Positions 45,155 to 63,920 are shown, counted from the stretch's first letter. The stretch is DNA of 64,000 nucleotides from an uncultured Pantoea sp. (GCA_966185695.1 CBIFUL010000010.1:2718-66717), one strand, 5' to 3'. The notes: generated from the letters alone by a model not told the origin. Made by a program: numbers and translations.

Positions 45155-47110
45155 CTAAACCAGCATTGCCGGATAGCGCTGGCGCAGCGCGGTGAACAGC
45201 TGTTCCATGTTTACCTCGGCATTCGCCGCCACCGCTTCGAACACCTGCTGCTTCAAGAAATGCCGCCAGCTTACCGGCGCGGCGGCGAGGAATGCGGTTA
45301 ACAAACGATAACGCTCCGCCGTCCAAACGGCTTCGAATGCCGTGCGCGCTGTGCCGTGGTCAAAATGGTGATCCGCACGATGGCGCATCTCTGCGCGCAA
45401 GCTGGCCGTTGCCGCCGCATCGATTTCACCCGTGACCAGCGCCACGCCGTAACGGTCGCGCGCCGCCTGGGCGGAGATAAAGCCGCAGCGCACATCCTGC
45501 AACACCCGCTCGGCATCGCGCTGCACCGGCAAACCGTAGCCGCCTGCGCCCGGCCCGCGCACTTCAACGATGTCACCCGGCTGGCAGTGGATCACATCGG
45601 TGTTGCCATGTTCCAGCACCTCCCCGTTGCGCCGCGTGCGGAAGTGCGACAGCGCACCGCACTCGCCGCCCAGCACGCCCGCCGAGGCAAAAACTGAGCG
45701 GTTGCGGTTGCGCGCCGTCACCGTGGTATTCGGCGCGAAAATCTCAAACGCCATTTCGGTGGCTAAGCCGCCGCGATAGCGTCCTGCCCCGGCGCTGTCG
45801 ACGGCCAAGCCGTAGCGATGGAAATGAATCGGCACTTCGGCTTCGTTGATCTCAATCGGGGTATTTTTCAAAAACGCCGATAACCCGCCGGAGCCGTCGG
45901 GGCCATCGTGACGTGGCGTGCCGCCTGCGCCGCCGCCCACCGGGCCGAGTGACGCCACCACGCTGCGATTAGCACTGTCGCTGGTGCGGATATTCATTAT
46001 CGAATTACCGCCCGGTGAGTTCGCCGGTAAACGGTCGGGAATCGCCTGCGAGAACACGCCGAGCGTGGCGATCTGCGACAGCGCGCAGGTCAGCGAACGC
46101 ATACCCACCGCCGCAGGCGCTTCGCAGTTCATTACCGTGCCCGGCGGCAAAATGGCGCGCGTTGGGCGCAAGGTGCCCGCATTTAGCAGCAGATGAGGAT
46201 CCAACGTCGCCAGCACATACGTCACGCCCACCAGCGCCAGCGGATGCCGTTCGCGTCCGCCGGTGGGCATATTCAGCGATGACGCCAACTGCGGATCGCT
46301 GCCGGTGTAATCCAGCTCCAGCGTCTCGCCGCGAATGCGCAAGGTAATTGCCACGCGGCACGGAAAGCCCCCTTCGCCATCCTCATCCGCGAAATCGGCG
46401 TAGAAGTAGTCGCCGTCGGGCAAGGTGGCGATGATGCTGCGCGCCTGCGCTTCGGCGTAATCCAGTATGCCTGCAATACCTTGCAGGAAATCCTCGACGC
46501 CAAATCGCGCAATGATGTCGTGGATCTTGCGTTCGCCGACGTTCACCGAAGCGATCTGCGCTTTGAAATCACCCCAGTTTTGCGCCGGCGCGCGCACGTT
46601 AAGGCGCATGATGCGCGCCACTTCTTCATTCAACTCGCCGTGCCGCACAATTTTCAGCGGCGGAATGCGGATGCCCTCCTGCACAATATCGGTGAGCGAA
46701 CGCGACAGCGAGGCGGGCACCGCGCCGCCCACGTCGGTATTGTGAATGTGTCCCACCACAAAACAGACGATCTCGCCATGATGGAACACCGGTTTCCAGA
46801 TGTGGATATCCGGTGAATGCGTCGCCACGTTGCCTGCGTAGGAGTCATTGGTGATGCAGATGTCACCCTCCTCGTAGTGGTCGATCAGGGCCAGGACCGG
46901 GCCGTAATCAATGCCGCTGTACCAGGGCGCGCCGAAACTGCGCGGCGAGGCAAAAGCTAAGCCGTCGCGGCTGACGATCTGGCAGGAAAAGTCCTCCGTC
47001 TCCTTCACGAAAGTGGAGTGCGCGGTGCGCATCAGGGTAAAGGCCATCGCATCGGCGGCCGCGGCGCAGTAGTTGGCCAGAATTTGCAGATTACGTCCGT
47101 CAATCGCCAT
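45155..47110 (-). CDS. Hydantoinase B / 5-oxoprolinase-family subunit
   Basis: MRTAHSTFVKETEDFS, NDSYAG..HSPD, HNTDVGG. Confidence 0.9.
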   Translation of the reverse strand: MAIDGRNLQILANYCAAAADAMAFTLMRTAHSTFVKETEDFSCQIVSRDGLAFASPRSFGAPWYSGIDYGPVLALIDHYEEGDICITNDSYAGNVATHSPDIHIWKPVFHHGEIVCFVVGHIHNTDVGGAVPASLSRSLTDIVQEGIRIPPLKIVRHGELNEEVARIMRLNVRAPAQNWGDFKAQIASVNVGERKIHDIIARFGVEDFLQGIAGILDYAEAQARSIIATLPDGDYFYADFADEDGEGGFPCRVAITLRIRGETLELDYTGSDPQLASSLNMPTGGRERHPLALVGVTYVLATLDPHLLLNAGTLRPTRAILPPGTVMNCEAPAAVGMRSLTCALSQIATLGVFSQAIPDRLPANSPGGNSIMNIRTSDSANRSVVASLGPVGGGAGGTPRHDGPDGSGGLSAFLKNTPIEINEAEVPIHFHRYGLAVDSAGAGRYRGGLATEMAFEIFAPNTTVTARNRNRSVFASAGVLGGECGALSHFRTRRNGEVLEHGNTDVIHCQPGDIVEVRGPGAGGYGLPVQRDAERVLQDVRCGFISAQAARDRYGVALVTGEIDAAATASLRAEMRHRADHHFDHGTARTAFEAVWTAERYRLLTAFLAAAPVSWRHFLKQQVFEAVAANAEVNMEQLFTALRQRYPAMLV

Positions 47111-47111
47111 C

Positions 47112-62422: not shown

Positions 62423-62450
62423 GACGCAACCTCGTCGTTGTTGGATGCCA

Positions 62451-63920
62451 TTAAAAATCGATGAGAACACTTTTCTGACGCTGACAGGCTTCGAACGCCT
62501 GACGTCCCAAATCCTTGCCGATGCCGGATCCGAGGAAGCCGCCGGTCGGAATAATGAAGTCGCCCGAGCGGCCATAGCGGTTGATCCACACGGTGCCGGC
62601 GTCCAGCGCACGCATGGCACGCATGGCGCGCGGCAGGCTCAGGGTATGAACGCCCGCGCACAGGCCGTAGGTTTCGTGCGCCGCCAGCGCTAAGCCCTCC
62701 TCTTCGCTCTCGAACTCCTGCACGGTGAGTACCGGGCCAAAAATTTCCTGCTGCACCGCCGGATTGTCGGCCGCGACGCCGCACAGCAAGGTGGGCTGCC
62801 AGAACCAGCCGTCGGCGGTGTCGGCAAAGCGTTCGCCGCCCACCAGCACCTGCGCGCCCTGCGCGGTGGCAGCGGCAATCAGCGAGGCCACTTTGGTGCC
62901 CTGACGTTCATCGATCAGCGGCGCGTAGCGGCTGCTGTCCTGCCATGTCGCGCCCGGACGCGGCTGCTGGCACAGTTCCACCAGCCGATCCAGCAGCGGC
63001 TGCGCAATGCCCTGCTGCACAATCAACCGCGTACCGGCCACGCACGCCTGGCCGCCGTTGGCGGTGAAGCCGCGCATAATGCGCTGCGCCAGCACCTCGA
63101 TATCGCCCGCATCATCAAACACCAGCTGCGGGCTTTTGCCGCCCAGCTCCAGCGTCACCGGTTTCATGCCGTGCTGCGCCACATCGCCCATGATGCGCGC
63201 GCCGGTCACGGTTGAGCCGGTAAAGGAGACTTTGCGCACCAGCGGATGCGTGACCAGCGCGTGGCCGGTTACCGCGCCGCCGCCCTGCACAATGTTGAGC
63301 ACGCCCGCCGGTAAACCGGCCTGCACCGCCAGTTCGGCCATGCGCACGGTGGAGAACGGCGTCAACTCAGAGGGTTTCAACACCACCGCGTTGCCGGCGG
63401 CCAGCGCCGGGCCGCACTTCCACGACGCCATCGACAGCGGGAAATTCCACGGGGTGATCGCGCCGATCACGCCATAAGGTTCGGCGATCAGCATGCCGAG
63501 GCTGCTGTGCTGGGTGGGGAACAGGTCGCCGCTGTATTTGTCGGCGCACTCGGCGTAGAAGCGAATCGCTTCGGCGGTGAACGGGATTTCGTGCTGCACC
63601 ACATCGCTAATTGGTCGCGTCGAACCAAGCGATTCCAGTTGTGCCAGCAGCAGATCGCTTTCAATTAAATCTGCCCAGCGACGCAGCACTTTGCCACGTT
63701 CACGCGGCGAGCAGCTGCGCCAGCCGCTGGCGCTAAGCGCCTGATGCGCCAGCGTTACCGCGCGATCCACATCCTCAGCCTGCGCTTCGCTGAGTTCCGC
63801 ATAGATTTTGCCATCGGACGGTCGCTTAACGGCAAAGCGTGCGCCATGGGTTTGCACATGTTGCCCACTAATATAATGACCAAGCGGTAACGAAACTTTT
63901 TCTGGGTCGAAACTTAACAT
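62451..63920 (-). CDS. Aldehyde dehydrogenase (PuuC/GabD-like family)
   Basis: ITPWNFP, KPSE, FTGS, LELGGKSP, GQACVAG (catalytic Cys), EIFGPV; ATG at 63920. Confidence 0.92.
   Translation of the reverse strand: MLSFDPEKVSLPLGHYISGQHVQTHGARFAVKRPSDGKIYAELSEAQAEDVDRAVTLAHQALSASGWRSCSPRERGKVLRRWADLIESDLLLAQLESLGSTRPISDVVQHEIPFTAEAIRFYAECADKYSGDLFPTQHSSLGMLIAEPYGVIGAITPWNFPLSMASWKCGPALAAGNAVVLKPSELTPFSTVRMAELAVQAGLPAGVLNIVQGGGAVTGHALVTHPLVRKVSFTGSTVTGARIMGDVAQHGMKPVTLELGGKSPQLVFDDAGDIEVLAQRIMRGFTANGGQACVAGTRLIVQQGIAQPLLDRLVELCQQPRPGATWQDSSRYAPLIDERQGTKVASLIAAATAQGAQVLVGGERFADTADGWFWQPTLLCGVAADNPAVQQEIFGPVLTVQEFESEEEGLALAAHETYGLCAGVHTLSLPRAMRAMRALDAGTVWINRYGRSGDFIIPTGGFLGSGIGKDLGRQAFEACQRQKSVLIDF

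Follow-up and report, generated by a model that had tools for sequence, protein, structure and literature searches.

What does the long run of catabolic genes at positions 45155 to 63920 of a 64,000-nucleotide stretch of DNA from an uncultured Pantoea sp. (GCA_966185695.1 CBIFUL010000010.1:2718-66717; hereafter the window) import and degrade? The run comprises 15 genes, all on the minus strand and none with internal stops, that encode an aldehyde dehydrogenase (ALDH), a HAD type II hydrolase (HAD), an FAD amine oxidoreductase (FAD1), an ATP-binding cassette (ABC) importer with two permeases, a fused ATPase, and a solute-binding protein (SBP), a tandem-GNAT acetyltransferase (GNAT2), a GhrA-like 2-hydroxyacid dehydrogenase (GhrA), an M20 amidohydrolase, a GabT-type aminotransferase, an Lrp regulator, and a trio composed of a small GNAT, HyuA, and HyuB. 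Open reading frame listing and Pfam and NCBIfam scans, with starts refined against annotated homologues, confirm the families named in an initial annotation of this sequence, and its suggestion that the cluster continues beyond position 64000 is borne out by a sigma-54 promoter and a succinate-semialdehyde dehydrogenase (SSADH) gene located there. With SSADH, the block has 16 co-oriented intact genes and occupies ~20 kb of a Pantoea chromosome. We describe here that it is one recurrent catabolic gene set that is horizontally mobile, and that its combination of known enzyme families is so far undescribed; searches of the literature on the cluster, on azetidine hydrolase structures, on nicotianamine catabolism, and on Ralstonia with nicotianamine found no description of the gene set. 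As to its function, we tentatively favor, with confidence a little short of even, a nitrogen-regulated island that imports and degrades an N-alkylated amino-carboxylate that includes an azetidine-type unit, a substrate that we infer from the gene content.

Distribution and mobility of the gene set

A first survey, in which an M20 protein scan was combined with a tblastn survey of 82 loci, placed the core from Lrp to ALDH also in other Pantoea, Tatumella, Variovorax, Paracidovorax citrulli, sphingomonads, and Rudaea, and a core copy resides on the Ralstonia solanacearum megaplasmid. On the Serratia plasmid pQE31 (L001) and the Klebsiella variicola plasmid pX39 (L083) it forms a 15-gene island, extending from SSADH to Lrp, that is bounded by insertion sequences (IS91/IS21/IS5/IS110/IS1). 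The same SSADH gene precedes ALDH on both plasmids and adjoins the Ralstonia copy. Sixteen Klebsiella records matched, with the island itself inspected on K. variicola pX39 only; on the remaining Klebsiella IncF-type plasmids, which came from patients, wastewater, meat, and vegetables, the match is limited to the ABC-transporter segment, at 74.7% identity.

HAD is a convenient marker for the set, its orthologues sharing 65% identity across Pantoea, Methylobacterium, and roseobacters, with every copy generically annotated. An even sample of 401 Pseudomonadota genomes from 233 genera contains a HAD orthologue (at least 48% identity) in 29 genomes (~7%), representing 18 genera and three classes. 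We inspected 20 kb around all 33 HAD loci, several of which reach contig ends, so that the following partner counts are a minimum. GNAT2 is near HAD at 26 of the 33 loci, FAD1 at 25 (at 20 of them immediately adjacent on the same strand), SBP at 22, the GhrA-like dehydrogenase at 20, an SSADH-like ALDH and a second ALDH at 18 each, a class-III aminotransferase at 17, a second amine oxidase (FAD2 or OoxAB) and Lrp at 15 each, an Iso_dh enzyme at 14, a Cupin_3 protein at 11, M20 at three, and HyuAB at one. The Iso_dh partners at L086 and L100 exceed the cut-off of the tartrate dehydrogenase equivalog TIGR02089 (571 and 570 bits vs 470). The order of the genes varies among these loci and their content is constant. 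The initial annotation had read these genes as one catabolic pathway, with a lack of co-regulation or co-conservation as a possible refutation; the recurrence of the partners around the 33 HAD loci upholds the proposal.

Several versions of the set are distinguishable. In the beta- and alphaproteobacterial versions a PRK05965-type omega-aminotransferase replaces GabT, and the Ralstonia and sphingomonad versions include OoxA/B with a 2Fe-2S protein. The minimal variant in Methylobacterium consists of GhrA-HAD-SSADH-GNAT2. The island in the enterobacterial genome G493 (L127:8239-10994) has HyuAB and FAD2 with no M20 gene separating GabT from GhrA, which shows that the deacetylase can be dispensed with. 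We also note a paralogous mini-cluster at a second locus of the congeneric Pantoea G245 (contig C5; L122:6732-10374), where a HAD with 51% identity is accompanied by an APH-family kinase, a class-III pyridoxal phosphate (PLP) enzyme, and Lrp, and a similar set with an added M20 at L117. The combination of HAD, APH kinase, and class-III PLP enzyme recalls kinase/phospho-lyase pairs acting on amino alcohols, and the G245 mini-cluster may handle, by way of a kinase and a phospho-lyase, a hydroxy-amino acid of the kind proposed below for the island. The island in Sulfitobacter sp. EhC04 has a 728-residue protein with Pyr_redox_2, Rieske, and MOSC matches in Pfam (L086:13229-15415), an apparent fusion, together with a third DAO enzyme and two tandem GNATs.

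The HAD hydrolase and its nearest relatives

The nucleophile motif of HAD, FDCYGTL (residues 10-16 of 222), is of the DxYGT type, and its closest solved relatives are the L-azetidine-2-carboxylate hydrolase 3smv (E 5e-22) and 8hp5 (8e-23). Haloacid dehalogenases, epoxide hydrolases, and fluoroacetate dehalogenase match at ~1e-11 or worse, eleven orders weaker. The characterized hydrolase of Pseudomonas sp. A2C acts on azetidine-2-carboxylate, a plant toxin, and opens its four-membered ring to give 2-hydroxy-4-aminobutyrate, and the Aspergillus nidulans homologue AzhA acts together with the GNAT NgnA and GABA (4-aminobutyrate) transaminase. The SN2 mechanism of the HAD family gives a D-2-hydroxy acid as the expected product. 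We propose that the HAD encoded here is a ring-opening hydrolase of the azetidine-2-carboxylate type. The cluster shares HAD type II, a GNAT, a GABA-type transaminase, and SSADH with the known azetidine-2-carboxylate hydrolase route, whose product fits the downstream enzymes, although that route is without the Opp/Nik-type importer, flavin amine oxidases, second ALDH, D-2-hydroxyacid dehydrogenase, Cupin_3 protein, and tartrate dehydrogenase of the cluster.

Probable regulation by nitrogen

The SSADH-ALDH spacer contains the sigma-54 promoter TGGCATACTTTCTGCA at window-equivalent positions 64005-64020, ~85 nt upstream of the ALDH ATG and in front of ALDH-HAD-FAD1-ABC, with the GG at -24 and the GC at -12 spaced as in the canonical TGGCAC-N5-TTGCA. 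One pattern match in 14 kb, which 95 of 200 shuffles also yielded, is not significant alone. We call the promoter because of its conservation within a diverged spacer, rather than from a single pattern match: TGGCAT-N5-CTGCA is invariant in four aligned spacers (the window genome, Pantoea G245, Serratia pQE31, and K. variicola pX39) that are otherwise just 61% identical. An NtrC-like site, TGCACCGCCGCGATGCA, lies ~140 nt upstream of the sigma-54 element (window-equivalent ~64144-64160), with an A/T tract between the two; it agrees at 11 of 12 positions with the NtrC consensus TGCACC-N5-GGTGCA, and its half sites are conserved in the alignment. A scan for promoter and terminator consensus sequences was uninformative. 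We infer that the sigma-54 promoter and the NtrC-like site drive the ALDH-HAD-FAD1 operon, and expression of the cluster is probably driven by nitrogen limitation, with Lrp as a likely pathway-specific regulator.

A proposed pathway for an azetidine-type amino-carboxylate

The steps that we envisage begin with uptake, in which a Tat (twin-arginine)-exported SBP and the ABC importer would take up the compound. In the cytoplasm, HAD would attack the alpha-carbon of a strained unit of the azetidine-2-carboxylate type, either free or N-substituted, and displace the nitrogen there, giving a D-2-hydroxy-4-aminobutyrate unit. FAD1 would oxidize C-N bonds to yield aldehydes and amines, with a second SoxB-like or opine-oxidase-like enzyme added in relatives, and ALDH and SSADH would oxidize the resulting aldehydes. 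GabT would take off the terminal 4-amino group to give D-malate semialdehyde, and the carbon would exit as succinate or D-malate, the SSADH-like enzyme converting D-malate semialdehyde to D-malate and a TtuC/DmlA-type enzyme (encoded elsewhere in this strain) taking this to pyruvate. The GhrA-like enzyme may interconvert the 2-hydroxy and 2-oxo acids that are formed, GNAT2 (plus M20 where present) may acetylate and deacetylate a toxic amino-acid intermediate, and Lrp may sense the substrate or an intermediate. Where it is present, GNAT-HyuA-HyuB could bring the lactams of these omega-amino acids into the pathway.

Support for this reading comes from the enzymes that travel with HAD being those needed after 2-hydroxy-4-aminobutyrate, and the minimal variants in Methylobacterium and G245 agree with a hydroxy-amino-acid product. 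The co-conserved importer, the one to three flavin oxidases (FAD1, FAD2, and OoxAB), and the second ALDH further suggest that what is imported is bigger than a free imino acid and includes amines that are secondary or tertiary. Several observations weigh against it, however. HAD is ~35% identical to 3smv, with VSSSFRYD at motif IV rather than TAESLYHD, and 8hp5 was deposited merely as a generic haloacid dehalogenase. The roles given to GhrA, GNAT2, Cupin_3, and M20 were assigned in hindsight. Marine roseobacters carry the island as well, and azetidine compounds are not known from such settings. A pattern search did not find the conserved sigma-54 site in the beta- and alphaproteobacterial loci, confining it to the enterobacterial and plasmid versions, and the pathway in this strain, whose cluster has neither FAD2 nor tartrate dehydrogenase, may be a reduced or partial one.

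Nicotianamine and the mugineic-acid phytosiderophores are specific candidates, although we consider it unlikely on balance that their degradation is the function of the island. These metal-chelating compounds are N-alkyl azetidine-2-carboxylates built from four-carbon amino-acid units and are ubiquitous in plants; they are candidates because metal chelation fits the Nik/Cnt-like importer and because most carriers of the island are plant-associated. The importer would take up the chelate, HAD would open the azetidine ring, and the flavin oxidases would cut the secondary amines, with the four-carbon units (2-hydroxy-4-aminobutyrate, diaminobutyrate, and aspartate or malate semialdehyde) proceeding to malate, aspartate, and succinate. 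Deoxymugineic acid (DMA) is readily degraded by soil microbes, and proline-2'-deoxymugineic acid (PDMA), an analogue with the five-membered ring of proline that was designed against ring strain and biodegradation, outlasted DMA in calcareous soil (PMC7946895; PMC12723747). Our literature search found no paper naming genes for the degradation of deoxymugineic acid. If true, this assignment would explain the fast microbial loss of deoxymugineic acid in soil and would fit the logic of the PDMA design.

Should the substrate prove to be of the azetidine type, microbial turnover of azetidine-2-carboxylate conjugates would have its first genes, and these conjugates may include nicotianamine and phytosiderophores, whose biodegradation limits cereal iron nutrition and the design of iron fertilizers. 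Many of the organisms that carry the gene set are pathogens of plants or live in association with them (Pantoea, Erwinia, Dickeya, Ralstonia solanacearum, Paracidovorax citrulli, Variovorax, and Methylobacterium), and knowledge of its substrate would reveal a route for scavenging nitrogen that is new to plant-microbe metabolism.

Alternative explanations

Four rival models were weighed. One, advanced in part by the initial annotation, is a pathway for polyamines or diamines similar to the Escherichia coli Puu route, in which acetylation by a GNAT and deacetylation by M20 replace gamma-glutamylation. A diamine would be converted to its N-acetyl form, which the flavin oxidase and ALDH would oxidize to an N-acetyl-omega-amino acid; M20 would release GABA, GabT and SSADH would take it to succinate, and HyuAB would open the lactam. 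In the enterobacterial version this scheme has one-to-one analogues for six genes (GNAT2/PuuA, FAD1/PuuB, ALDH/PuuC, M20/PuuD, GabT/PuuE, and SSADH/YneI), and YxeP, the nearest structure to M20, partners a GNAT in a known protect/deprotect route. The absence of a nearby glutamylating ligase, noted at the outset, also stands: a genome search with PF00120 (Gln-synt_C) gave matches at C18, C2:124576, and C10:115788 (49 kb past the window end), and none in or beside the cluster. The fit to those six genes survives, but the scheme does not extend to the wider family. Because M20 is present at just three of the HAD loci, and is absent even in the enterobacterial G493, an acetylation/deacetylation cycle is not part of the conserved core; GNAT2 tracks with HAD, GhrA, and SSADH, as in the minimal Methylobacterium cluster, rather than with FAD1 and ALDH; HAD, GhrA, tartrate dehydrogenase, and Cupin_3 are left without a role; and a binding protein of the Opp/Nik type is not usual for polyamine import. 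We therefore regard this model as unlikely. The same can be said of catabolism of an opine-like, Amadori-type, or other aminopolycarboxylate compound without an azetidine ring, in which the flavin oxidases would perform the key C-N cleavages and HAD would act on another 2-substituted acid or as a repair enzyme for side reactions. Oxidases of the DAO, SoxB, and opine-oxidase types recur in the family (FAD1, FAD2, and OoxA/B with the 2Fe-2S protein), SBP is similar to AgaA and AccA-type opine binders, the combination of HyuAB, an Opp-type ABC importer, and a DAO oxidase parallels the Ti-plasmid genes for agropinic acid, and GhrA-type enzymes dispose of the glyoxylate or other 2-oxo acids arising from such oxidases. 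However, HAD is the most faithfully conserved member of the set and lies directly beside FAD1, its closest characterized relatives open the azetidine ring, and the omega-transaminase, the SSADH-like enzyme, and the D-malate/tartrate dehydrogenase fit the known product of azetidine opening.

A narrower model retains the azetidine ring and proposes that free L-azetidine-2-carboxylate is the only substrate, converted by HAD to 2-hydroxy-4-aminobutyrate and then processed by GabT and SSADH, with GNAT as a detoxifier similar to Mpr1 or NgnA and with the oxidases and ABC importer having other functions. Pseudomonas sp. A2C and A. nidulans are established examples of this logic, and mini-clusters of HAD, a class-III PLP enzyme, and Lrp do exist. 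We nonetheless find it distinctly improbable, as a free imino acid needs no Opp/Nik-type importer, one to three amine oxidases, or second ALDH, all of which are co-conserved with HAD, and the cluster is far more widely spread than the plants known to produce azetidine-2-carboxylate. Finally, unrelated operons (for GABA utilization, a peptide importer, and an oxoprolinase) could lie together by chance, sharing no common pathway. The internal gaps of 115-300 bp, some with hairpins able to end transcripts, the finding of a single sigma-54 promoter, and the separation of modules in some genomes can be read in that way. Such an explanation is very improbable, however, given that the same gene set recurs in 18 genera and three classes with its order rearranged and its content constant, and that the island moves on plasmids as a single unit bounded by insertion sequences. 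The N-alkylated azetidine-type amino-carboxylate remains our preferred substrate.

An accessory lactamase module

The initial annotation offered lactam degradation as one candidate for the pathway, but the survey does not support it as the center of the gene set, as HyuAB is absent from 32 of the 33 HAD loci and is accessory where it occurs. HyuA and HyuB are always adjacent, here 1 nt apart (47110/47112), and have the features of the hydantoinase/oxoprolinase A/B superfamily, with the three A domains on one subunit and Hydantoinase_B on its neighbor. HyuA matches N-methylhydantoinase 7hk5 (E 4e-119) and caprolactamase 6yra (2e-95) in the PDB, although the caprolactamase CapA/CapB equivalogs NF050156 and NF050157 are not reached (416.9 and 249.2 bits vs 1000). 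When compared with known ATP-dependent A/B lactamases (7hk5, 6yra, and OplAB), the subunits are full-length with all Pfam domains and strong similarity to N-methylhydantoinase and caprolactamase, but the pair differs in having a small GNAT in front and in its sub-cut-off caprolactamase scores. Caprolactam, valerolactam, and plain 5-oxoproline were accordingly rejected as the central substrate, HyuAB being accessory and far under the caprolactamase cut-offs.

The small GNAT precedes HyuA-HyuB everywhere except in Acerihabitans, and travels with the pair at L003, L004, L023, L089, L090, L125, L126, and L127. We examined its linkage to the core in one genome per genus from 151 genera of the enterobacterial family, scoring HyuA at 72% identity or more. 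HAD is present in nine of the 151 genomes and HyuA in five, all five of which are also HAD-positive, with HyuA 14-20 kb from HAD on the same contig in each. With the query genome excluded, all four HyuA genomes are among the 8 of 150 that carry HAD, for which the hypergeometric probability is ~3.5e-6, uncorrected for phylogeny. In the non-enterobacterial G330 the trio (45-63% identical) is at the opposite end of the cluster, beside ALDH, and in Rouxiella it is separate, with a MocR-type regulator. It is missing from the Serratia and Klebsiella plasmids, Tatumella, and Ralstonia. The genome also encodes two PxpA-type (LamB_YcsF) oxoprolinases elsewhere (314 and 300 bits), and HyuAB is therefore not its sole route for 5-oxoproline disposal. 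The co-occurrence in all five HyuA genomes, the independent joining in G330, and the two PxpA genes bear out the earlier expectation that the A/B pair is linked to the rest of the cluster and is not a stray 5-oxoprolinase. The trio is a predicted portable ATP-dependent lactamase module that has been repeatedly attached to gene sets for omega-amino-acid and amine oxidation; it is linked in function to the core yet accessory, and was gained by it on at least two independent occasions. As a recurrent lactamase module it is of interest for biocatalysis. We also note that in a 6.66-Mb genome (L089:1-17317) GNAT-HyuA-HyuB lies between OppBCDF and an SBP_bac_5 gene, with no HAD; that operon, in which two ALDHs, an aminotransferase, Cupin_3, an oxidase similar to FAD2, and a regulator of the HTH-cupin type are also encoded, looks like a sister pathway.

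The copy in this strain

FAD2, a 443-residue protein of the DAO family encoded by a 1.33-kb gene, is missing here from between the ATPase and GNAT2 genes, unlike in the other Pantoea, Tatumella, Acerihabitans, and plasmid copies (it is present at L001, L003, L005, L023, L083, L088, L092, and L127). A paralogue (51%) is encoded elsewhere in the genome in an unrelated context. Tartrate dehydrogenase is likewise not in the cluster of the window, and a 51% homologue is found elsewhere in the genome. Two repetitive extragenic palindrome (REP) hairpins, GGTCGCCATNNATGGCGAC and GGTGCGCATNNATGCGCACC, belonging to a REP-associated tyrosine transposase (RAYT) locus, are present at three intergenic sites within the cluster (Table 1). 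The downstream end of the block is the REP array of that RAYT locus, which touches the HyuB stop codon; at the other end, two LysR regulators lie past the SSADH gene on the genome contig.

Gene content and coordinates

The genes are mostly spaced by 0-30 nt or overlap by 1-4 nt, with ribosome-binding sites present and frames intact. The family assignments listed in Table 1 exceed Pfam gathering scores, and where an NCBIfam model is passed its cut-off is given after the score.

Table 1. Positions and family support of the features in and beside the cluster; positions above 64000 are window-equivalent.
Feature	Position	Strand	Support
SSADH gene, outside the window	64358-65815	minus-strand block	TIGR01780, 676 bits vs 646
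REP hairpins after the SSADH stop	L085:985-1050		
Regulatory region, 437 bp, upstream of ALDH gene	begins 63921-64000 in the window	-	SSADH-ALDH spacer
ALDH, NAD(P) aldehyde dehydrogenase, 489 aa, aminobutyraldehyde/betaine-aldehyde/PuuC-like group	62451-63920	-	Pfam Aldedh, 471 bits
HAD type II hydrolase, 222 aa	61754-62422	-	TIGR01428 HAD_type_II, 168.6 vs 125.4
FAD1, FAD amine oxidoreductase, DAO family, PuuB/AmaA-like, 425 aa	60466-61743	-	Pfam DAO, 243.6 bits
SBP, periplasmic solute-binding protein, SBP_bac_5, 534 aa	58673-60277	-	best families NikA/Opp5A
ABC permease, OppB/NikB-like	57634-58587	-	Pfam/NCBIfam
ABC permease, OppC/NikC-like	56783-57634	-	Pfam/NCBIfam
Fused double ABC ATPase, 554 aa	55122-56786	-	best matches CntD/CntF/NikD/NikE
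Intergenic REP hairpins, at the place of FAD2 in relatives	54929-55121	.	193-bp gap
GNAT2, tandem-GNAT acetyltransferase (GNAT + Acetyltransf_18), 281 aa	54083-54928	-	Pfam
GhrA-like D-isomer-specific 2-hydroxyacid dehydrogenase, 308 aa	53157-54083	-	2-Hacid_dh_C, 157 bits; GhrA model 203 bits, under cut-off
M20 N-acyl-amino-acid amidohydrolase, 379 aa	52016-53155	-	TIGR01891, 360.9 vs 153.75
GabT, 4-aminobutyrate-type class-III aminotransferase, 438 aa	50584-51900	-	TIGR00700 GABA transaminase, 538.7 vs 506.65
Lrp/AsnC-family regulator, 170 aa	49931-50443	-	Pfam
REP hairpins after Lrp	49835-49889		
Small GNAT acetyltransferase, first gene of the accessory trio, 147 aa	49179-49622	-	Pfam
HyuA, hydantoinase/oxoprolinase A subunit, 682 aa	47112-49160	-	Hydant_A_N + Hydantoinase_A + Hydant_A_C
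HyuB, hydantoinase/oxoprolinase B subunit, 651 aa	45155-47110	-	Hydantoinase_B

More specific models are approached by several of the proteins at scores under their cut-offs. The top NCBIfam match of ALDH is PRK13473 (424 bits, under cut-off), with the PuuC model at 381 bits. FAD1 comes closest to L-pipecolate oxidase AmaA (184 bits) and then TIGR03329 (174 bits), again under cut-off in each case; phosphonate catabolism, which the latter match would suggest, was rejected, the score being 174 vs 633 bits and Phn genes absent. The closest family matches of the importer as a whole are in the Nik/Cnt metal-chelate branch, and the agropinic-acid binder AgaA (6hlx) is the second-best PDB match of SBP (98 bits). 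The N-terminus of SBP (60098-60277, minus strand) encodes a twin-arginine signal, SRRGLMKLLSAGAAMSSGIIGFPQMSFA (SRRGLMKLL...SFA), which is unusual among enterobacterial binding proteins of the Opp/Nik family. M20 has YxeP (1ysj) and ILL2 (1xmb) as PDB neighbors, and DoeB2 as its best specific model (339.7 vs 550). An AlphaFold2 model of GNAT2 (mean predicted local distance difference test score, pLDDT, 92.6) has as its top Foldseek match the uncharacterized 3ddd, with a template modeling (TM) score of 0.79, followed by other tandem GNATs. A PDB sequence search with GNAT2 gave only a marginal phosphinothricin acetyltransferase match, and as its Foldseek neighbors are uncharacterized or unrelated tandem GNATs, these searches provided no clue to its substrate.

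Similarities to known systems

The aga/moa genes of octopine-type Ti plasmids include an Opp-family importer (AgaA), a HyuA/HyuB-like lactamase, and a DAO-type oxidase that act on an N-substituted amino acid and its lactam, as in the cluster. However, aga/moa reside on a Ti plasmid and are without HAD, GhrA, aminotransferase, and SSADH, whereas the cluster is without genes for a sugar moiety and the similarity in SBP is modest. The ectoine Doe system (DoeB/DoeD/DoeC/DoeX) resembles the cluster in its M20 deacetylase, class-III transaminase, SSADH-like ALDH, and AsnC/Lrp regulator, although the cluster is without a DoeA hydrolase (none of its genes is of the M24 type) and without an Ehu/Uehu-type transporter, and M20 is not conserved across the cluster family. 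Ectoine degradation was rejected on the sub-cut-off DoeB2 score and the lack of DoeA.

The likeness to the E. coli Puu pathway is in the sequence of flavin oxidase, ALDH, amide hydrolase, GabT, and SSADH, and probably in nitrogen control; the cluster differs in having no PuuA-type ligase, in having M20 instead of an enzyme with the PuuD-type amidotransferase fold, and in the addition of HAD, GhrA, and the ABC importer. We also note that the PF00120 match on C2 of this genome is a GlnA-family gene situated ~3 kb from a DAO-family gene (G000:C2:124576-129081), and this pair may represent a classical Puu-type gamma-glutamyl polyamine pathway.

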